This document shows, one piece after another, positions 3,228 to 55,026 of a DNA stretch of 64,000 bases. The notes beneath the pieces were generated by a model. The model searched no databases. It was not told where the DNA came from and was given only the letters and a program-made list of their open reading frames with translations. How positions within the stretch are numbered: position 1 is the first letter of the stretch; each line of letters begins with the position of its first letter. Made by a program: the position numbers and the translations under genes. Origin of the DNA: Candidatus Magasanikiibacteriota bacterium (GTDB taxonomy: Bacteria > Patescibacteriota > Patescibacteriia > Magasanikbacterales > UBA922); contig JBAYJP010000001.1 of the NCBI GenBank assembly GCA_041665025.1, positions 211,996-275,995 on the forward strand, in the 5' to 3' direction.

Positions 3228-3623
3228 TCAATTATTTCTATCTTTTCCTGATTTCTCTTTTATTTTTTCCTTCTTTTTGATTATTGAAGAAAATATTTTA
3301 TTAAGTTCTATGCTTTCTTGTAGTAAGGGCTGCATTCTGACTTTAAGCTGGGAGTTATTTTCGATAATCAATCTCAACCAATATATAGATTCTTTAGCTT
3401 CTTTTCTTACAATTCTTAATCTGAATAAAAAATCTTTATCTCCAAGACAATCATTGGCTTCTCGATAATTTGCCCCCATAGATGAACTGGAACGGATGAC
3501 TTGATTTGAATAATATAAATTTGTGTCGCTCCTCGGTAGTTGTTTAGTCATATTCAAAGTTCTTTTCGCAAACTCAAAAGTTCTTTCTTCCAAATCAAAT
3601 GTATGCTCTCCGCCTTCATTCAT
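3228..3623 (-). CDS. four-helix-bundle protein of the 23S rRNA intervening-sequence protein family
   Basis: Family pattern FEFAKRTL...LP...Y.L..Q..RS..S...N..EA....KDF...L.IA..E..E..YWL.L is present. Start could be the GTG at 3629 or the ATG at 3623. Confidence 0.75.
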   Translation of the reverse strand: MNEGGEHTFDLEERTFEFAKRTLNMTKQLPRSDTNLYYSNQVIRSSSSMGANYREANDCLGDKDFLFRLRIVRKEAKESIYWLRLIIENNSQLKVRMQPLLQESIELNKIFSSIIKKKEKIKEKSGKDRNN

Positions 3624-3640
3624 AATCACATTGTTGTTTC

Positions 3641-3686: not shown

Positions 3687-4499
3687 TTATAAAAATAATA
3701 AAATCAAAACTCCAATAATCACTCTATACACCACAAATGGCAAAAAACTCCACTTCTGTATTATTTTCATCAACCCCCAAATCGCAAGCAAACCACTTAT
3801 TGCCGACGCCACAAATCCTGCAATGAGCATCTCGACACCGACCGCTTCAAAACCGTTTTTTATCATATCAATTAATTGCATACCACCGGCAAGTGTAATA
3901 ATCGGAACACTCATGAGAAATGAAAATTCTGCTGCGCTTTTTTTATCCAATTTTGAAAACAATCCCGCTGTCATAGTAATACCTGACCGACTGGTTCCGG
4001 GAACAAGTGCGACAGCTTGTGCACAACCAATAAACAATGCGGTACGCCAATTTACCTTCTCTAATGATTGTTGATTGTTGATTGTTGTTCGTTGAACACG
4101 ATCTGCAATAAACAAAACAACTCCCCATACAATAAAATTCACTCCAATAATCCACGTCGCACGCAAGTTCTCTTCTATCCAACTGTCAAATAGGATTCCA
4201 ACAATTCCGGCTGGGATTATACTCAAAATAATTAACCAGGCTAATTTTCTATTACTGCTCCCTGTTCCTTGGTCGCTGTTCACCAGTAACACGCTCTTCA
4301 ACATCCCCAACAACTTCTTTCTAAAATACACAACCACTGCAACGAGTGTGCCAAGATGTATAAACGTATCGAACGCAAGTCCCTGATCTGCCCAACCAAA
4401 TAATTTTGGTAAAAAAATAAGATGGCCAGATGATGAGACGGGCAGGAATTCAGTAAGACCTTGAATTATTCCTAAAACAATTGCTTGAAGTATAGACAT
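3687..4499 (-). CDS. uppP: undecaprenyl-diphosphate phosphatase
   Basis: N-terminal MSILQAIVLGIIQGLTEFLPVSSSGHLI is the UppP/BacA signature; multi-TM protein. Confidence 0.9.
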   Translation of the reverse strand: MSILQAIVLGIIQGLTEFLPVSSSGHLIFLPKLFGWADQGLAFDTFIHLGTLVAVVVYFRKKLLGMLKSVLLVNSDQGTGSSNRKLAWLIILSIIPAGIVGILFDSWIEENLRATWIIGVNFIVWGVVLFIADRVQRTTINNQQSLEKVNWRTALFIGCAQAVALVPGTSRSGITMTAGLFSKLDKKSAAEFSFLMSVPIITLAGGMQLIDMIKNGFEAVGVEMLIAGFVASAISGLLAIWGLMKIIQKWSFLPFVVYRVIIGVLILLFL

Positions 4500-4581
4500 G
4501 CAATAAGTATAGCAGAAATATTGACAAAATTCTATAAATATGATATTATTTTGCGAAACTTACGCGCGGAAAGGGGTTGAC

Positions 4582-4812
4582 ATGGAAAAGACCCGCGCCG
4601 AGTTGGAGAGCCTTCTGCCGGAAGATCCGGCAATGGCTCTGCTGGTGCTGGCCGGCCTGATCTTCGCGTTCATGGTCGGCTGGTTGGTATTTCGGCTTCG
4701 CGCTGCGAAGCGTGTGGCCGAGACACTCAACTTCGAGACCGAGCGCCCCGCTCGCATCGCCGCCTTCGAAGAGAAGTCGGCTGAGCAGGATGGGACGCTC
4801 GTCGTCCGCTGA
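4582..4812 (+). CDS. small single-TM hypothetical protein encoded in a high-GC island (about 60% GC, GC3-rich codons)
   Basis: SD GGAAAGGGG followed by ATG. Protein MEKTRAELESLLPEDPAMALLVLAGLIFAFMVGWLVF... Codons are GCC/CTG/GGC/CGC-rich, unlike the host. An antisense ORF (4546..4842, TTG start) is also open, so the coding strand is not certain. Confidence 0.35.
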   Translation: MEKTRAELESLLPEDPAMALLVLAGLIFAFMVGWLVFRLRAAKRVAETLNFETERPARIAAFEEKSAEQDGTLVVR

Positions 4813-4923
4813 GAAAAAGGAGAAGGAAGATGAAACTTCCAAACAGCGGCGGGGTGCGAGTCTACATGCGCCCTAGCCGCTCCCTGCCATGAGATATTGA
4901 AATATCAATGCATCATGATACTA

Positions 4924-4960
4924 AAAAACCGATTCTTTATATAAGATCGGTTTTTTATTT
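4924..4960 (+). terminator. intrinsic terminator (hairpin accgat...atcggt plus T-run), bidirectional
   Basis: aaaaaccgattctttatataagatcggttttttatttt. Confidence 0.4.
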
Positions 4961-5036
4961 TACTCACCGCTTGAGAATTAATAATACTGTGATATATTCC
5001 TATAGCTCGGGCATACACATTGCGAAAGGAGGAATC

Positions 5037-5384
5037 ATGGCCAAAATCCTCGTGATAGATGACTACCCAACCATACGACGAATAATTACCTGTTTTCTCG
5101 ACAGGGAGCATGAGGTCATTGCTGTCTCAAACGGCGATGAGGCTGTCCGGATGTTTCAGACAAAGTGCTTTGACCTACTAATCGCTGATGTTGAAATTCC
5201 AGATGCGATGAGCGGCGTCATGGCAGGCAGAATTTTGAAAGATCAATTTCCTTCTTTGAAAGTAATCATGATGAGTGGGTATCCCCTCTCTCTCGAAGAA
5301 TATCCTTTTGCGGACAATGTAATCACAAAGCCTTTTCGCCAGACAGAACTGGCTCTTCTGGTTCGCACCACATTAGGAGGGTGA
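5037..5384 (+). CDS. stand-alone response-regulator receiver (CheY-like) domain protein
   Basis: Strong SD aaaggagg 6 nt upstream of the ATG. Motifs MAKILVIDD and LLIADVEIPD (phospho-acceptor Asp). No output domain. The ORF-track N-terminal extension is rejected. Confidence 0.75.
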   Translation: MAKILVIDDYPTIRRIITCFLDREHEVIAVSNGDEAVRMFQTKCFDLLIADVEIPDAMSGVMAGRILKDQFPSLKVIMMSGYPLSLEEYPFADNVITKPFRQTELALLVRTTLGG

Positions 5385-5416
5385 TCGTGTGTGCCCGGGC
5401 AGCCCTCCTTAATAAT

Positions 5417-5453
5417 AAAACCATCCTGCTTATCAACAGGACGGTTTTTTATT
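5417..5453 (+). terminator. intrinsic terminator
   Basis: aaaaccatcctg-cttatcaa-caggacggttttttatttt; the stem has one mismatch and is followed by a T-run. Confidence 0.4.
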
Positions 5454-5521
5454 TTATCTCTGCAGTATCTCAATATATCTCCATTTATATTGTTATCTAC
5501 TAACACAAATTGATTCTCAAA

Positions 5522-6673
5522 CTATACCAGGGCTCTCTTTAGTTCTTCAACTTTGTCCAATTTTTCCCACGGAAATTCATCTCTTCCAAAATGTCCATAT
5601 GCCGCAGTAGCCTGATAAATCGGACGAAGTAAATCAAGTTGTTCAATAATTGCTTTTGGTTTGAAGCTAAATACGTGTCGTACTGCTTGTTCTATTTTTT
5701 CATTTTCCACTTTGCCACTTCCATTAGTATTGACTAGAATACTTACTGGTTCTGCTACACCAATCGCATAAGCAACTTGGATCTCGCATCTATCTGCAAG
5801 ACCAGCAGCAACAATATTTTTTGCAACATAACGCGCATAGTATGACGCGCTTCGATCAACTTTGCTTGGATCTTTTCCTGAAAAACATCCGCCACCATGA
5901 CTGCCGTGTCCGCCGTACGTATCAACAATAATTTTGCGTCCCGTTAGACCCGCGTCTCCTACCGGTCCGCCAATAACAAACCGCCCAGTTGGATTTACAA
6001 AATATTTTGTATTCTCATCAACCAAATTTCCGCACACTGGTTTGATCACGTGTTCGATAATATCTTTGCGAATAGTTTCCAAATCAACATCGTCTGCATG
6101 TTGTGTTGAAATAACAACCGTATCTATACGTTTTGGCTTGCCATCTTCGTATTCTACGGTTACTTGAGATTTACCATCTGGACGAACATATTTCAAAGTT
6201 CCATTTTTACGCACTTCTGCCAACTTACGTGTTAATTTATGCGCATAAATAATGGGCATAGGCATGTACTCTGGTGTCTCATTGGTGGCATACCCAAACA
6301 TAAGACCTTGGTCTCCCGCGCCTTGTTCCTTGAATAAGCCTTCGCCTTCATTGACTCCTTGCGCGATATCTGGTGATTGTCCGGAAATGGCAACAAGAAC
6401 TCCGCACGTACTACCTTCAAAACCATATTCTGGTTTATCATAGCCAATATCCAAAATTGTTTTGCGCACAATATTTTGCACATCGACATACGTAGACGTA
6501 GTAACTTCTCCTGCTACTACCACAAATCCAGTTTTTGCAAGACACTCAATACCTGTATGTGCGTCTGGATCATCTTTGATAATCGCATCCACAATAGCAT
6601 CCGAAATTTGATCACACATTTTGTCTGGGTGACCCTCGGTCACTGATTCTGATGTAAAATAATATTTTGACAT
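5522..6673 (-). CDS. metK: S-adenosylmethionine synthetase
   Basis: [30 protein letters not shown] and a GGGAFSGKD-like motif; full length 383 aa. Confidence 0.95.
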
Positions 6674-7262: not shown

Positions 7263-8465
7263 TTAAAATAGCTTAAAAACACTATACACCGCTCCGACTG
7301 CAAGTGCAAGCAGTAGTACAGGGACCAGAAGCAATGCATGATGTATGTGATATTTCTTATTATTCAACACTCCTTTTTGTCGAGCGCGCCAATATATAAA
7401 TACCACAAATATCAAATCAATACTTACCAATACTCCCCCAATGACATCAATAAGCCCAATAAAGCTTCTCAGTCCTGCCACAAAAATCAAAAACGGAATA
7501 ATACAGACAAGAAGCGACGAAATAATTGGACGTATGCGATAATCCCATGTCAAAGAATCACGAAGCGCCATACCACCCATGAGAAAACCAGTTCCCATGG
7601 CAAGCACTGCAAAAATGTTACCAAATACAAATACCGAATTACCAATAACATTACCCAGGCCTACTGTAGCAATTTCTGTCGTATGTGAACCAGTTACTCC
7701 CACCACCACAAAAGCAAACAAACTGTAAATACCTATGCAAATGAACGAAGCAATAATAATGGTTTTTTTAAATAATCCGTCTTTGTGTTTGAGTAGTGTA
7801 TGCGCTTCGGGTATAACGCCTGTACTGCTCAAAGAAAACAGGATTACACCATAAGGAAGTAATAAATATGCAAAATTGTTAAACTCAACATGGGTACTTG
7901 ATATGTAAGGAGCTCCCAGAATAGAAATAATGATAATAACGAGTAACAGGCCAATACTCAAAAACAGATCAGCAACTTTTATCATGCGCAAACCTACAAA
8001 AACACACACAGAGGCAACTGCAAAAAATACTATACTCCATATAAATGGATCTCCACCAAATAATGCTGAAAGAGATGTTCCCTCGCCAATAATATATACT
8101 GTCATGACTCCGGCTCCCATGAGATAAATAAAGCCCGTCATAACCCAGGCACCCCATGCACCCAAATATTCACGTGCGAGTCCTATAACTTGTAATTCCC
8201 GTCTCGTACATGTCGCCACCTCTCCAATAAGCAGATTAAGACCCATCATGAGTAGCCCGAGCGTGACTATATATATACATCCAACTAGTATTCCTACCTT
8301 TGCAACTACAAAAGGGACACCGAGTACACCAGCACCGATTGTTCCGCTTACGACAAGCGCTACGCCCTGCAATAATGATAATCTGCGTTTAAAAATACCT
8401 CTATGCTGGATAAGAGGATGATCTTCCACAACATGTTCGCTTTTTTTAAATCTATTGAAAAACAT
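7263..8465 (-). CDS. amino-acid permease (APC/HAAAP-like, roughly 11 TM)
   Basis: VALVVSGTIGAGVLGVP motif typical of amino-acid transporter families; polytopic. Confidence 0.55.
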   Translation of the reverse strand: MFFNRFKKSEHVVEDHPLIQHRGIFKRRLSLLQGVALVVSGTIGAGVLGVPFVVAKVGILVGCIYIVTLGLLMMGLNLLIGEVATCTRRELQVIGLAREYLGAWGAWVMTGFIYLMGAGVMTVYIIGEGTSLSALFGGDPFIWSIVFFAVASVCVFVGLRMIKVADLFLSIGLLLVIIIISILGAPYISSTHVEFNNFAYLLLPYGVILFSLSSTGVIPEAHTLLKHKDGLFKKTIIIASFICIGIYSLFAFVVVGVTGSHTTEIATVGLGNVIGNSVFVFGNIFAVLAMGTGFLMGGMALRDSLTWDYRIRPIISSLLVCIIPFLIFVAGLRSFIGLIDVIGGVLVSIDLIFVVFIYWRARQKGVLNNKKYHIHHALLLVPVLLLALAVGAVYSVFKLF

Positions 8466-27032: not shown

Positions 27033-27201
27033 ATATGCTTAGTGTAGCATAATTGGGTTTAAGAGACAAGAAACAAGATACAAATAAAATCTCAATTTCC
27101 AATTTTCAAAATATTCACAGCCAGCCCTTGACGTCTCTCTCTCTCTTTGCTAGGGTTACATATCGCACTTGTCCTGGTGCGATGGAACAAGGAGACAGAG
27201 G

Positions 27202-27420
27202 ATGAAGCGCGAAGTTTCACCGACGGACTTCACAGCAGTGCTTGAGTACGAACCTCAGGAGGCAGCCGAAGCCGAAGCCGAGGCGGCAATGCTCAAGGCT
27301 GAAGGATGGAGGGTTCTCCTCCGTGAACCGACTGTCGACGGCAAAAGGAGACGCGCGGTGTTGGTCCCGGAGTGCACCGAGCTGACCGCGATCCGGTGGT
27401 TCAAAGAGAACAAGCACTAG
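27202..27420 (+). CDS. hypothetical small protein in high-GC island; an antisense ORF (27217..27447) is equally plausible
   Basis: SD AGGAGACAGAGG then ATG; protein MKREVSPTDFTAVLEYEPQEAAEAEAEAAMLKAEGW... The antisense ORF has SD GGAGGUCG then AUG and begins MWVVVGGEKLVLVLF. Confidence 0.3.
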   Translation: MKREVSPTDFTAVLEYEPQEAAEAEAEAAMLKAEGWRVLLREPTVDGKRRRAVLVPECTELTAIRWFKENKH

Positions 27421-27571
27421 CTTCTCACCGCCTACAACAACCCACATCGACCTCCGCTCTCATCTACCTACCACGACACCCTCAGGGCGTCCTTCCTCCA
27501 GCGCCCGCGCATTGGTTATCTCTGCCTTCCAGCGGACATAGTCAGTGAAAATCGCTGGAGAGGAAAAATAA

Positions 27572-27603
27572 AAATCACCCATGAAATTGGGTGATTTTTT
27601 TAT
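27572..27603 (+). terminator. intrinsic terminator
   Basis: aaaaatcaccca-tgaaat-tgggtgatttttttat. Confidence 0.5.
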
Positions 27604-27623
27604 AAAATGTATGGTGGTGATGC

Positions 27624-27751
27624 GATACAACCTACCCTCCATCTCCCTCCCTTACTAGGGAGGGAGAGCCCACTTATATATCTAAATCAAACATTTTAGG
27701 GCGTCCCTCCTCCATTTGTAAGGGAGGAGGAAAGGAGGTAGGTTGCATTAC
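27624..27751. repeat. pair of GC-rich hairpin modules (about 50 bp each, about 80% identical) in inverted orientation
   Basis: Left arm caacctaccctccatctccctcccttactagggagggag matches the reverse complement of right arm gtccctcctccatttgtaagggaggaggaaaggaggtaggttg. Each arm also folds on itself. Confidence 0.45.
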
Positions 27752-43083: not shown

Positions 43084-44436
43084 ATGTCAAAAGCGCTTTT
43101 TATAGGAAGATTTCAACCCTTTCACCTCGGCCACCTAGATGCACTAAAACAAATCACTGAAGACGAGATTATTATTGGGGTTGGAAGTTCACAATATAGC
43201 AGAACTGATGAAAATCCGTGGGCGTTTGAAGAACGAAAGCAAATGATTGAGCAGTCGCTTGCAAACGAACACTTTAATTATTCAATTACCGCGATACCTG
43301 ATATCCATGATGAAAAAAATTGGGTAGACCATGTAAAAAAAATCGTCGGTGATTTTGCTGTTGTATATACAGGCAATGATGTTGTCAAAAAATTATTTAA
43401 AGAGAAGGGATACAGAGTGAAAGAGGTAGGAGTTAAGGTTAAAATTTCTGGAACAGAAATACGCAAGGAAGCTAATCGACTATTTGAAAAACTTTCTAAA
43501 ACAAAGAGAACCATGTCCTACTGTTTGAGTATTGCGCCACTCACACTTGAAATAAATCAACTCAAAAAAGAACAAAATGCCATCATACTCGCCCACTCAT
43601 ATCAGACAACCGATATCATGTACGGCGTTGCAGATTTTATTGGCGATTCATATGGACTAGCAAAAATAGCATCACAACATGACGCGCAGAAAATAATTTT
43701 CTGTTCAGTACATTTCATGGGAGAAACGGCAAAAATATTAAATCCAAAAAAAGAAGTATTGGTACCGACAATGGCAGGATGCTCTCTTGCAGAGAGTATT
43801 ACCGCAAAAGATGTACGAAATCTAAAAGCAAAATATCCGGGAGTTCCTGTAATTACCTATGTGAACACAACGGCAGAAGTAAAAGCTGAAAGCGATATAT
43901 GCTGTACTTCGTCTAACGCCCTGAAAATTATAAACTCTTTGCCTAATGAACAAGTTATTTTTATTCCAGACAAACTCATGGGACAAAATCTACAGAAAAA
44001 GACAGACAAGAAACTTATTTTATGGAATGGAACGTGTATCGTGCATGAACAATTTGATAAGCAAGCTATAGACAATATCCGCGCACAATTTCCAGAAACA
44101 AAGATATTGGCACACTATGAATGTACATCATCGGTAGCTGATAATGTAGACATGGTCGGAAGTACCGGAGAAATGCTAAAATATGTACAAGAAAATCCTG
44201 CCGAACATTACATGCTTATTACTGAGTGTGGCATTACGGACAGAGTTCAAACAGAATTTCCAGATAAACACATTGTAGGCAGTTGTCAACTTTGCCCGTA
44301 TATGAAACAGATTAAATTAGAGGATGTGCTCACTGCATTACAAAATCCCAGAGAAGAGCAGATTATTTCTATTCCGAAGGATATACTTAAGAGAGCGAAA
44401 AAAAGTTTGGATAGGATGATGGAATTGGGCAAGTAA
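43084..44436 (+). CDS. nadA: bifunctional fusion: archaeal-type nicotinamide-nucleotide adenylyltransferase (NadM-like) plus quinolinate synthase (NadA)
   Basis: N-terminal 140 aa FIGRFQPFHLGHL cytidylyltransferase (HxGH) fold. C-terminal 300 aa NadA with its conserved cysteines (ILAHSYQ, FMGETAKILNP, CIVHEQF, GSCQLCPYM). Confidence 0.75.
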   Translation: MSKALFIGRFQPFHLGHLDALKQITEDEIIIGVGSSQYSRTDENPWAFEERKQMIEQSLANEHFNYSITAIPDIHDEKNWVDHVKKIVGDFAVVYTGNDVVKKLFKEKGYRVKEVGVKVKISGTEIRKEANRLFEKLSKTKRTMSYCLSIAPLTLEINQLKKEQNAIILAHSYQTTDIMYGVADFIGDSYGLAKIASQHDAQKIIFCSVHFMGETAKILNPKKEVLVPTMAGCSLAESITAKDVRNLKAKYPGVPVITYVNTTAEVKAESDICCTSSNALKIINSLPNEQVIFIPDKLMGQNLQKKTDKKLILWNGTCIVHEQFDKQAIDNIRAQFPETKILAHYECTSSVADNVDMVGSTGEMLKYVQENPAEHYMLITECGITDRVQTEFPDKHIVGSCQLCPYMKQIKLEDVLTALQNPREEQIISIPKDILKRAKKSLDRMMELGK

Positions 44437-44555
44437 ACAAAAAACCGCTTTTCAGCAGTTCTTTGAAAAAATAGTATGTCCATGGTAAAACTTTATATAT
44501 TGTATAATATACAAAGTTCTCGCCATGGACACCTCCTTGCCAAGCGAGAAAAAGA

Positions 44556-44849
44556 TCAGCGTGCGCTAAAAGAGATCTTTTCGCGTGGGATCCTCTTGCC
44601 CCAAGCCCGGGCACACTCCCGCTCGTGTCTCTCCACACAACCGATCTTGATCAGGTAGGCCAGCACAGAATAGACGTTGCTGTGCCGCACCCTCCAGGTC
44701 GTATCCTCAACGATCCTTACGGCACTCCACTGCTTACCCGGCGTCCCGCTGAGAAGTCTGAAGACCTCATCGCGTGCCGGACGCACAATGAGGTCATAGT
44801 GGAGAAAGACACCAACCAAAACACCGCCGACTATGACCAAAAGCCACAT
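44556..44849 (-). CDS. hypothetical small protein (N-terminal TM helix) in high-GC island, antisense insertion inside the nad operon
   Basis: SD GGAGGT 7 nt upstream of the ATG; MWLLVIVGGVLVGVFL...; GC3-rich codons. Followed by a 60-bp hairpin tgtccatgg...ccatggaca at 44478-44537. Confidence 0.35.
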   Translation of the reverse strand: MWLLVIVGGVLVGVFLHYDLIVRPARDEVFRLLSGTPGKQWSAVRIVEDTTWRVRHSNVYSVLAYLIKIGCVERHERECARAWGKRIPREKISFSAR

Positions 44850-44912
44850 CGCAGTACCTCCGGGGTTGTTGTTTCATTTTTATTCTAACACAAAAAATCA
44901 AAATCTCATAGT

Positions 44913-47462: not shown

Positions 47463-48563
47463 ATGATAATCCTTGGCATCGAAAGTTCATGCGACGATAC
47501 ATCAGTCGCATTACTGGATATAACAGACGACCACATTGAAATCCTTGCGGAAAAAACTGCAAGCCAAATTGATGTACACAAAAAATATGGCGGGGTCGTG
47601 CCAGAGATTGCGGGACGAAAGCATGCGGAAAAAATTGTACCATTGGTTGAACATATTCTTGAAGAAGCTAGGGTTACTAAACCTGATGTAATTGCAGTTA
47701 CGTCTGGTCCGGGTTTAATAACGGGACTTGTGGTGGGAGTTGAAACAGCCAAGACGCTTTCTTATTTATGGGATGTACCTATTGTAGGTGTGAATCATAT
47801 TGAGGGACATATACATAGTGTAAAAATTCCAAATACCAAGATACAAGATACAAATAAATTTCCAATTTCCAATTTCAAATTTCCAGTACTTAGTCTCATT
47901 GCATCAGGAGGCCACACAGAACTTATCCTTTCTAAAAAACAAGGAGAATATGAACGAATAGGAAGTACAGTAGATGATGCTGCTGGAGAATGTTTTGACA
48001 AAGTAGCAAAACTGCTTGGGTTTGATTATCCTGGTGGACCAAAAATTTCAAAATTTGCTGAAACAGGAAACCCCCATGCCATAGAATTTCCTCGACCAAT
48101 GATACATTCAAAAGACTTCAACTTTAGTTTTGCCGGACTCAAAACCGCAGCACTCTATTGGCTGCGAGATAATCAATTATCTGCTTCTCACACACTATCT
48201 TACGAACTTCCAGCCGGAATATTCGGACAAACACCAGAACAACCCACGATCAACGACTTTTGTTCAAGTTTCGAACAAGCTATCATTGATGTCCTGGTTA
48301 CTAAAACCCTCAACGCAGCAAAAAAATACAAACCAAAAACTGTTATTTTAGGTGGTGGAGTTTCTGCAAACAAAAAATTACGTGAGACATTACAAAAAAG
48401 CATTGAAGAAAATTTTCCGGCTTCTAGTTTCTTTCTTCCCTTACCCAAGTATGCCATGGACAATGCGGCCATGATAGCTGTTGCGGCATACCATCATGTA
48501 AAAAAGAAAGAATTTACGTTGTGGCAAAAATTACAAGCAAATCCAAATTGGAAAATATATTAA
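47463..48563 (+). CDS. tsaD: tRNA N6-adenosine threonylcarbamoyltransferase
   Basis: MIILGIESSCDDTSVALL, GVNHIEGH and SGGHTEL motifs. Contains AATTTCC-type heptamer repeats at 47838-47884. Confidence 0.9.
   Translation: MIILGIESSCDDTSVALLDITDDHIEILAEKTASQIDVHKKYGGVVPEIAGRKHAEKIVPLVEHILEEARVTKPDVIAVTSGPGLITGLVVGVETAKTLSYLWDVPIVGVNHIEGHIHSVKIPNTKIQDTNKFPISNFKFPVLSLIASGGHTELILSKKQGEYERIGSTVDDAAGECFDKVAKLLGFDYPGGPKISKFAETGNPHAIEFPRPMIHSKDFNFSFAGLKTAALYWLRDNQLSASHTLSYELPAGIFGQTPEQPTINDFCSSFEQAIIDVLVTKTLNAAKKYKPKTVILGGGVSANKKLRETLQKSIEENFPASSFFLPLPKYAMDNAAMIAVAAYHHVKKKEFTLWQKLQANPNWKIY
47838..47884. repeat. tandem heptamers (CAAGATA x2, then AATTTCC/AATTTCA x4) inside tsaD
   Basis: Direct reading; encodes KIQDTNKFPISNFKFP in a loop between the GVNHIEGH and SGGHTEL motifs. 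Confidence 0.85.
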
Positions 48564-48565
48564 TG

Positions 48566-48641
48566 TACGAAATGCGAAAACTGCGAAAGGTACGAAAAAA
48601 TATATTTCGAATATTTCGTAGTTTTCGGATTTCGTACATAA
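48566..48641. repeat. AT-rich palindrome of TACGAAA-type words, related to 30111-30181
   Basis: gtacgaaatgcgaaaactgcgaaa is near-reverse-complementary to tttcgtagttttcggatttcgtac. Confidence 0.7.
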
Positions 48642-54896: not shown

Positions 54897-55026
54897 ATTC
54901 AACGTGCAATTTTACTACTAGAAATCACATAGCACATAACACGTAACATAAAAACAAAAAAATCTTTAACACGTTTTTGTTATGTGTTATGTGTTATGTG
55001 TTATGTGCTATGTGTTACGTGAACAC
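54897..55026. repeat. palindromic array of ACATAAC / GTTATGT heptamer words
   Basis: cacatagcacataacacgtaacat...gttatgtgttatgtgttatgtgctatgtgttacgtg. Confidence 0.7.

Follow-up and report, generated by a model that had tools for sequence, protein, structure and literature searches.

The locus described here lies in a window of 64,000 nucleotides (nt), the whole stretch of DNA analyzed, from a Candidatus Magasanikiibacteriota bacterium (contig JBAYJP010000001.1 of assembly GCA_041665025.1). Between uppP and a gene for a stand-alone receiver domain it contains a short segment of high G+C content (GC), island 1 (4556-4900), with a GC of 0.60 versus 0.23 (4500-4555) and 0.32 (4896-5036) in its flanks. 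The mean GC of the window, calculated for stretches of 150 nt, is 0.395 with a standard deviation of 0.062, and island 1 peaks at 0.653, about four standard deviations above it. Seven segments of the window have a GC of at least 0.55, island 1 included; two of the remaining ones bear tRNA genes, and one of these two also adjoins the L10 leader. Both strands of the island are open, the plus strand for 90 codons (4540-4812) and the minus strand for 98 codons (4546-4842). An ATG at 4582 on the plus strand opens a reading frame for 76 amino acids, designated ORF A (ORF, open reading frame). The GC at its three codon positions is 0.70/0.42/0.79, compared to 0.51/0.35/0.34 in a host reference of 32 ORFs of at least 300 codons each. 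A preliminary description of this DNA had reported about 340 bp of roughly 60% GC between AT-rich flanks, uppP and the receiver-domain gene as neighbors, open frames on both strands, and foreign-looking codons with a bias to G and C at third positions (GC3). All of these points were confirmed (GC3 is 0.79 versus 0.34 in the host), and its interpretation of the island was supported in part.

ORF A is a genuine coding sequence. Its length is no evidence of coding, because 11% of the dinucleotide-shuffled versions of the island also have an ATG ORF of at least 76 codons. The best Kyte-Doolittle mean over 19 residues is 2.64, which none of 5000 shuffles reached, and the GC contrast between codon positions was found in 0.9% of the shuffles and in none of those with an ORF of at least 60 codons. 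The small transmembrane (TM) protein gene proposed earlier is borne out by this hydrophobic segment and by a three-base periodicity exceeding that of shuffles. On the minus strand, the mirror ORF has TTG as its start codon and a GC3 below the GC of first positions; neither a Shine-Dalgarno (SD) sequence nor a hydrophobic segment was seen in it. The product of ORF A is identical to NCBI MFA6427033.1, which is annotated as "hypothetical protein" and is encoded on a contig of 282,871 bp in a metagenome-assembled genome of Candidatus Magasanikbacteria. According to the translation, its TM segment has an acidic N-side (PEDP) and a basic C-side (RLRAAKR), and the positive-inside rule suggests an N-out/C-in topology. 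For the single sequence, AlphaFold predicted helices at residues 3-11, 16-49 and 56-66, with block means of the predicted local distance difference test (pLDDT) of 92 for residues 21-40. One hydrophobic helix of about 20 residues and the charge asymmetry place the predicted protein in the generic class of small single-pass membrane proteins.

The transcript of ORF A is both coding and, by its predicted fold, exceptionally structured. The z-score of the folding energy of the 340-nt GC-rich body is -5.63 against dinucleotide shuffles and -7.26 when the flanks are included. The minus strand of the body yields -145.1 kcal/mol (z -4.09); the plus strand is more stable by 17 kcal/mol and contains 16 G.U pairs versus 6. 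This asymmetry between the strands points to RNA, not DNA. ORF A alone (228 nt) folds with -116 kcal/mol. When its synonymous codons are permuted between positions with the same amino acid, 24-25 kcal/mol of this stability is lost (z = -5.7 in one run, -4.3 in another). The stems are built by the synonymous choices as such. The same permutation applied to 14 gene segments from genomes with 60-74% GC resulted in a mean z of -0.5 (standard deviation 1.35, minimum -2.25), and values from -0.1 to -2.1 were obtained for a GC-rich transporter gene of a relative (locus L010). Segments of the host genes uppP and metK ranged from +1.1 to -3.6, and the adjacent receiver gene, with a z of -0.68, is not hyper-structured. 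In a folding scan of the whole window the 240-nt stretch 4681-4920 occupied rank 3 of 532, beside tRNA clusters and terminator-rich spacers.

The predicted minimum free energy (MFE) structure is a chain of about seven hairpins, whose ends are loosely joined by a helix between 4559-4569 and 4884-4893. In this structure the GC is 0.72 at paired versus 0.35 at unpaired positions; unpaired positions of shuffles have 0.447 ± 0.031, and none of 200 shuffles was as low as the native sequence. Paired third positions have a GC of 0.85, and the unpaired ones, just 14 in number, 0.50. The SD sequence is partly paired (GGGUU with GACCC) and the AUG resides in a loop. The unpaired probability is 1.00 for the AUG and 0.33 for the SD window, compared to a transcript average of 0.32. 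Sequestration of the SD sequence or the AUG was not found as a common feature of island 1 and its positional analogues in relatives, and the relatives' genes at this position have strong GGAGG SD sequences.

The elements that frame the gene are compiled in Table 1. A near-consensus promoter upstream of ORF A, which was missing from the preliminary description, ends 7 nt ahead of the GC rise, and transcription probably starts near 4556, where the GC rise begins. The -35 element of this promoter lies in DNA that is common to a close relative (L002), and its -10 element lies within an indel that is described below. The promoter-like site on the opposite strand probably serves uppP, and its TAGAAT is conserved in L002. 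The SD sequence and the terminator that had already been ascribed to the gene are both present, the former as AAAGGGG 5 nt before the ATG and the latter as a perfect 12-nt inverted repeat (4922-4933/4946-4957) with a T-run. Owing to an A-run upstream, the terminator is potentially bidirectional; Rfam yielded only weak terminator-like matches there. Mini-ORF B shows no coding signal (codon-position GC 0.57/0.57/0.67) and is doubtful as a coding sequence. The receiver gene has its own promoter-like site (4971-4998) and a terminator in common with metK (about 5410-5456); a close relative of this gene was not found.

Two roles of the island as a leader were considered and rejected. A leader or attenuator of the receiver gene is at odds with the separate promoter-like site of that gene and with the existence of relatives that have a TM protein gene only or a receiver gene only at this position, and no antiterminator partner for the terminator arm was seen. 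A minus-strand leader of uppP is at odds with the position of the uppP promoter, which lies between, and with the better folding of the plus strand. Two pairs of direct repeats bracket the GC-rich core, GAAATATTGA/GAGATATTGA at 4515-4524/4891-4900 and ATGATATTA/ATGATACTA at 4539-4547/4913-4921. They are near-equally spaced, which would fit a duplicated promoter-like flank but could also be chance in AT-rich DNA. On its other side, uppP is adjoined by a gene for a protein of the 23S rRNA intervening-sequence (four-helix-bundle) family (3228-3629, minus strand).

Table 1. Features at the island 1 locus, in window coordinates (UTR, untranslated region).
Feature	Position	Strand	Remark
BacA/UppP gene (uppP)	3687-4499	-	neighbor of island 1
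Sigma-70-type promoter, -35 TTGACA (4521-4526), 17-nt spacer, extended -10 TG-n-TATTAT (4544-4549)	4521-4549	+	11/12 consensus matches
Putative uppP promoter TTCGCA-17-TAGAAT, back to back with the overlapping island promoter	4529-4557	-	9/12 matches
GC-rich hyper-structured RNA body (predicted MFE -162.5 kcal/mol) with about seven hairpins	4556-4895	+	z -5.63
5' UTR with SD sequence AAAGGGG (4570-4576), 5 nt ahead of ATG	4556-4581	+	
5' arm of closing 5'-3' helix (CUUA.G.GCGG)	4559-4569	+	MFE structure; predicted
ORF A, 76-amino-acid single-pass membrane protein without detectable homologues (ORFan)	4582-4812	+	stop codon 4810-4812
Transmembrane helix AMALLVLAGLIFAFMVGWLVF, codons 17-37 (21 residues)	4630-4692	+	hydrophobicity; AlphaFold
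Purine-rich unstructured spacer GAAAAAGGAGAAGGAAG with strong SD sequence for mini-ORF B	4813-4829	+	
Mini-ORF B, 20 amino acids (MKLPNSGGVRVYMRPSRSLP), within GC-rich 3' hairpins; coding doubtful	4830-4892	+	after ORF A stop
3' arm of closing helix (CUGCC.UGAG)	4884-4893	+	MFE structure; predicted
Intrinsic terminator, 12-bp stem (TAAAAAACCGAT/ATCGGTTTTTTA), 12-nt loop, T-run	4922-4965	+	
Stand-alone receiver-domain gene, 115 amino acids, 46% GC	5037-5384	+	PF00072, 57.9 bits
metK	5522-6673	-	beyond receiver-domain gene

Comparison with the closest relative, UBA11699 (L002), revealed an indel of about 870 bp (4539-5410) that holds both the island unit and the receiver gene. The UppP proteins of the two genomes are 72% identical, the metK DNA about 87%, and the uppP-metK gap of the relative has about 90 bp. 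The indel has 50% GC overall and is mixed, consisting of AT-rich control regions, the 64% GC ORF and the 46% GC receiver gene. The GC boundary coincides with the transcript body (4556-4895), not with the ends of the indel. The surroundings of UppP relatives were collected from species-representative genomes and Joint Genome Institute (JGI) metagenomes, and these loci are designated by L numbers. Across lineages of Magasanikbacteria the gap between uppP and metK has 90-1023 bp and no DNA in common, with the exception of L004 and L023. The gene divergent from uppP is repeatedly small and GC-rich, with 0.49-0.64 versus locus means of about 0.36-0.52. In several loci this slot encodes membrane proteins (L004/L023 with 105 amino acids, L011 with 106, L016 with 96, L018 with 156, L057 with 92, and L052), in others stand-alone receivers (L025, L022, L019, L013, L014, L063), and the order of the window, membrane protein then receiver, recurs in L022. 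Homology was not detected among the TM proteins of the slot, and the receivers are mutually only 20-33% identical. The latter range from canonical (L025 with 71.8 bits, the window receiver with 57.9) to degenerate (L019 with 25.2 bits, L013 with 21, L014 without a match).

About two thirds of these non-homologous slot occupants are hyper-structured. Against synonymous permutation, z-scores of -8.4 (L006), -7.6 (L011), -7.4 (L019), -5.6 (L016), -5.4 (L014), -3.9 (L025), -3.5 (L023) and -3.0 (L004) were obtained. Against dinucleotide shuffles the GC-rich cores reached -15.8 (L011), -6.6 (L023), -5.1 (L004) and -5.0 (L013). L025 has a solid Pfam receiver domain and yet is hyper-structured. L019 and L014 rank among the most hyper-structured receivers, unlike L013 (z -2.6). 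For about half of the analogues, the two strands do not differ in how well they fold. In L006 (3340-3765, minus strand) and L011 (3480-3905, minus strand) at least seven perfect hairpins of 9-22 bp are chained through an ORF with a strong SD sequence.

L004 (3330-3860, minus strand) and L023 (3290-3820, minus strand) are a homologous pair with a two-TM ORF of 105 amino acids. The substitutions between the two ORFs are distributed 26/13/48 over codon positions 1/2/3 and the amino acid identity is 70%, and this dominance of third positions shows that the ORF is coding. The UTRs are nearly identical and are better conserved than the coding sequence, and a frameshift separates the 3' UTR mini-ORFs of the two loci. 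In both loci a perfect 14-bp helix (GCAGGTGGAGCTGC/GCAGCTCCACCTGC) joins the 5' UTR to the 3' UTR. This 14-nt terminal inverted repeat was found solely in these two elements and is read as a closing helix of the RNA; L014 has an analogous closing helix of 9 pairs. RNAalifold predicted 128 pairs for the alignment of L004 and L023, 12 of them compensatory, compared to 0-1 when the pairing partners were slid by 1-3 columns, a contrast that is inflated by the structure being derived from the same alignment.

Searches with the 76-amino-acid product, as suggested in the preliminary description, retrieved the protein itself or nothing and did not identify a donor. Among 5.8 billion protein clusters (90% identity), a word-index search found no other member, an exhaustive phmmer search against 1.84 billion representatives (about 15 billion proteins) found no homologue, and none was present in JGI metagenome contigs or IMG/VR. 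The only matches in Pfam, NCBIfam, PHROGs and PADLOC were weak noise that the TM segment causes. Among GenBank phages and PLSDB plasmids, blastn returned short chance or terminator matches only. Apart from the terminator-like matches mentioned above, none of the 4227 Rfam families matched island 1, including E-values up to 10. At gathering thresholds Rfam detected tRNAs and the L10 leader in the whole window and tRNAs only in 17 related loci, and ARAGORN did not find a transfer-messenger RNA. No carrier of island 1 was found among GTDB species representatives and JGI metagenomes, the best UppP identity being 72-73%. Integrase or mobility genes, att-like repeats, terminal inverted repeats or a convincing target duplication were not found at island 1.

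The preliminary description had proposed a comparison with two further GC-rich islands of the window. Both are indeed GC-rich ORFans; they are unrelated to island 1 and not hyper-structured, and the view that they represent the same phenomenon was rejected. Island 2 (27135-27570) contains a 72-amino-acid ORFan (27202-27420, plus strand; MFA6427055.1) with codon-position GC of 0.65/0.44/0.69 and a long C-rich 3' region. Island 3 (44511-44876) contains a 97-amino-acid ORF (44556-44849, minus strand), whose product has a TM segment at its N-terminus and one region that weakly resembles a winged helix (PadR/TrmB matches, E 0.05-0.09). A homologue of this ORF was not found, and its exact sequence is not in the protein collection. 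A repeated or mobile element behind the three islands was also rejected, because they have no mutual DNA or protein similarity and there is no further copy in the window. The 3' part of island 2 together with the following spacer (27361-27720) is among the most structured 240-nt stretches of the window, with z-scores of about -6 to -7, and includes a hairpin near 27640-27670 whose arms begin with ctccatctccctccc and gggagggagag.

With moderate confidence, island 1 can be regarded as an accessory gene for a small membrane protein on a very stable mRNA that has been shaped by selection. From a near-consensus promoter of the host type, about 400 nt would be transcribed up to the intrinsic terminator, and this RNA would encode a lineage-specific bitopic protein of 76 amino acids with a short acidic N-terminus, a TM helix and a basic, helical cytoplasmic tail. 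About seven GC-rich hairpins would extend across the coding region and the 3' UTR and leave the start codon exposed. Much of the high GC, and with it much of the GC3 bias, would have arisen because stems in the sense RNA were selected for. The effect would be an mRNA that is long-lived, RNase-resistant and slowly translated, rather than translationally silent; with the initiation region open and the body and the 3' UTR in stems, a long-lived and slowly translated message seems the most likely outcome. ORF A and the orphan receiver gene lie together on a gain/loss module of about 870 bp in a hypervariable slot, which across Magasanikbacteria is filled by unrelated small GC-rich genes, most of them hyper-structured. 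A partnership of ORF A with the adjacent receiver is possible; it is not required, because slots with only a TM protein gene or only a receiver gene are common. Selection on mRNA structure is favored as a major cause of the GC of island 1, because the high GC goes closely together with a fold of the sense transcript that is unusually stable, and donor composition is the less likely cause.

Several observations weigh against this explanation. The predicted closing helix of island 1 is weak, with nine pairs interrupted by bulges, and the contrast between paired and unpaired GC is partly inherent in MFE folding, the excess depletion being only about 0.10 over shuffles. Island 1 has no homologue, and therefore the comparative evidence is drawn from non-homologous positional analogues. 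Some of these are GC-rich without excess structure (L052 with a z of -0.2, L063 and L070 with -1.2 each), while L057 (-2.8) and L022 are intermediate. Islands 2 (z -0.9 overall) and 3 (z -1.8) are likewise GC-rich without being hyper-structured. Therefore, a pool of GC-rich foreign genes is possible.

The main rival is in line with the latter point and holds that ORF A, with or without the receiver gene, is a plain and recent horizontal import from a high-GC organism or mobile element, whose GC and codon usage are still those of the donor, prior to drift. Horizontal gene transfer has been reported to be frequent in Patescibacteria (PMC12455944), the slot is hypervariable with contents that are unrelated between lineages, and the GC3 of ORF A is far above that of the host. 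The indel between close relatives, be it a gain in the window or a loss in the relative, also fits, and so do the GC-rich slot genes and the two further islands that lack excess RNA structure. However, protein clusters, JGI contigs, IMG/VR, GenBank phages and PLSDB plasmids did not contain a donor homologue, and the element carries none of the mobility genes, att-like repeats or terminal inverted repeats that were looked for. Furthermore, the GC boundary follows the transcript body instead of the indel, the promoter and the terminator are host-like, the G+C is concentrated in stems, and genes of true high-GC genomes do not have comparable excess structure. The recent import from a high-GC donor that had been proposed in the preliminary description is thus in agreement with the atypical composition and the indel, but not with the missing donor homologue, the mixed indel, the stem-centered GC and the excess structure, and we regard an import as unlikely.

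Another view is that the locus is a module similar to type I toxin-antitoxin systems, with a toxic membrane protein whose mRNA, as with hok or aapA1, is stable, translationally restrained by a compact fold with 5'-3' pairing, and regulated by an antisense RNA. In line with such a module, ORF A is a small and hydrophobic ORFan with one TM segment, the intergenic slot is variable, the mRNA is predicted to be very stable and compact with a 5'-3' closing helix, and the TM-encoding analogues L004/L023 and L011 have stronger conserved helices of this type. The island also contains two terminator-like hairpins on the minus strand (4840-4825 and 4603-4591). However, a scan for consensus promoters, which weak ones could escape, did not detect a minus-strand promoter within or 3' of the island, the sole site being that of uppP (4557-4529). 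The AUG is fully exposed and the SD sequence is not more paired than average, and most analogues are alike in this respect. The protein is also longer than typical type I toxins, which have 60 amino acids or fewer. The same RNA traits are found on the receiver genes of the slot, which do not encode toxins, and neither Rfam nor Pfam yielded a match to any type I family. Three of the four defining features looked for, namely, an antisense promoter, sequestration of the start and a family match, were not found, and this view seems improbable.

A structured non-coding RNA (ncRNA) between a promoter and a terminator, with the ORF as an accident of the high GC, is even less probable. A GC-rich segment bounded in this way is the classical signature of an ncRNA gene, the folding z-score of -5.6 is in agreement with it, ORFs of this length arise in 11% of shuffles, and a protein homologue is lacking. 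However, the strong three-base periodicity, the TM segment that no shuffle reproduced, and the presence of an SD sequence and an ATG all speak for a protein, as do the positional analogues, which encode Pfam receivers or show a bias of substitutions to third positions, and no Rfam family matched at E-values up to 10. The preliminary description had named a structured RNA instead of a coding sequence as an alternative; the structured RNA was verified at the level of prediction, whereas the non-coding part is contradicted by the periodicity and the TM segment.

It is very improbable that the island is a neutral by-product of local mutation, for example by template-switch (quasi-palindrome) mutagenesis or by GC-biased gene conversion at a recombination hotspot. 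Mutation of this kind would create perfect hairpins and increase the GC in any DNA of the slot, and it could explain why unrelated sequences in the slot have common properties, why L006 and L011 consist of back-to-back perfect hairpins, why about half of the analogues fold equally on both strands, and why the slot receivers range from canonical to degenerate. It does not explain that the receiver gene, which lies in the same indel in the same orientation, has 46% GC and no excess structure, that AT-rich control regions are retained between the GC-rich parts, or that the ORF, the SD sequence and the TM segment are intact, and the G.U asymmetry in favor of the plus strand argues for selection at the RNA level.

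An assembly chimera or contamination, which the preliminary description had offered as a second option and for which the abrupt composition change in a metagenome-assembled genome is the sole support, can practically be dismissed, because analogous islands occupy the same gap in many independently assembled genomes and metagenome contigs, host-type promoter, SD sequence and terminator are flush with the island, and a 1488-bp contig of the Logan assembly of run SRR6484324 (SRR6484324_136626), a run that may also underlie the genome itself, is 100% identical to 4395-5882 of the window and covers the uppP start, island 1, the receiver gene and the metK end, and thereby both junctions.

The explanation by selection on mRNA structure can be extended to a bolder proposal, which is tentative and clearly less certain: Magasanikbacteria may carry a new class of natural "superfolder" coding RNAs, in which the RNA fold, and not the origin of the gene, would drive a local GC excess of 20-25 points, with island 1 as an orphan member. 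Its members would be small accessory genes for membrane peptides or stand-alone (pseudo)receivers, which occupy the hypervariable slot beside uppP in divergent orientation and occasionally other places. Selection would have turned the transcripts into strings of GC-rich hairpins, which a 5'-3' helix often closes, and a role might fall to the RNA itself, for instance as a message that is stored or protected from RNases, or as a dual-function RNA.

GC-rich islands also occur outside the slot in relatives, at L010 (4912-6201), L021 (6381-7652) and L014 (6256-6455). The one in L010 contains a foreign-looking transporter-like ORF of 569 amino acids with a z of about -1, and excess RNA structure was found in L014 (-4.2) and in L021 at 7370-7652 (-4.7). 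In the folding scan of the window, ranks 1 and 5 are taken by long AT-rich intergenic hairpins at 48563-48640 and 54920-55020, which are probably terminators; one is a CGAAA-rich inverted repeat, and in the other five tandem GTTATGT heptamers are paired with their complement. A further feature of the window is a quinolinate synthase (NadA) fused to an N-terminal cytidylyltransferase-like domain (43084-44436, plus strand).

Abrupt GC islands in metagenome-assembled genomes of the candidate phyla radiation (CPR) are easily discarded as contamination or called ncRNA. Island 1 is neither, and analogues recur in this slot throughout the class. A "foreign" composition may arise in place via selection for RNA structure, and this would weaken the equation of atypical GC with horizontal transfer for small genes. 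If hyper-stable mRNAs have indeed been selected, they would be a natural counterpart of engineered structured mRNAs and would offer an entry to mRNA turnover and translational control in organisms that are not yet culturable. In addition, the hypervariable locus beside uppP encodes lineage-specific membrane and receiver proteins, which are candidates for host interaction or envelope signaling in episymbiotic bacteria.

Several known systems resemble island 1 in part. With hok/sok of plasmid R1 and aapA1/isoA1 of Helicobacter pylori it has in common a small hydrophobic ORF without detectable homologues in a variable intergenic slot, and an mRNA that is predicted to be stable and compact, rich in hairpins and paired between its 5' and 3' ends. 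In contrast to these systems, island 1 revealed no gene for an antisense RNA, its start codon is exposed, the protein is longer (76 amino acids), the RNA style extends to receiver genes of the slot, and there is no family match. GC-content screens for intergenic ncRNA genes make use of GC-rich islands of structured RNA in AT-rich genomes, and like these, island 1 has a GC spike within a promoter-to-terminator unit, a strongly negative folding z-score and stem-centered G+C. Unlike them, it contains a statistically solid coding sequence and matches 0 of 4227 Rfam families. It resembles horizontally acquired islets and ORFans in its atypical composition, its presence or absence in close relatives, the lack of homologues and its location in a hotspot. 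However, orphan genes of gut prokaryotes normally match the GC of the genome, or are lower when they are phage-like (PMC11293555). An orphan about 25 points above it is therefore atypical on any reading. In addition, island 1 revealed no donor and no signature of mobility, and its control regions are host-like.

MgrB and SafA of Escherichia coli are small membrane proteins that modulate two-component signaling. Like them, ORF A encodes a single-pass protein of fewer than 100 amino acids beside a two-component element, the orphan receiver, and the gene order recurs in L022; in contrast to them, its sequence is unrelated to theirs and a histidine kinase is missing from the surroundings, and slots with only a TM protein or only a receiver gene are common. 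Engineered "superfolder" mRNAs have highly structured coding regions, which lengthen the functional half-life of the mRNA. In island 1, too, synonymous choices pack structure into the coding sequence and the 3' UTR, while the initiation region is predicted to be open; the difference is that superfolder mRNAs are engineered or eukaryotic. To our knowledge, no natural bacterial gene class with a superfolder-like property has been described, and our literature search, which was not aimed at the structured-mRNA property, revealed nothing on GC-rich hyper-structured small genes in CPR bacteria. Island 1 combines two known kinds, an orphan gene for a small membrane protein and a structured mRNA.

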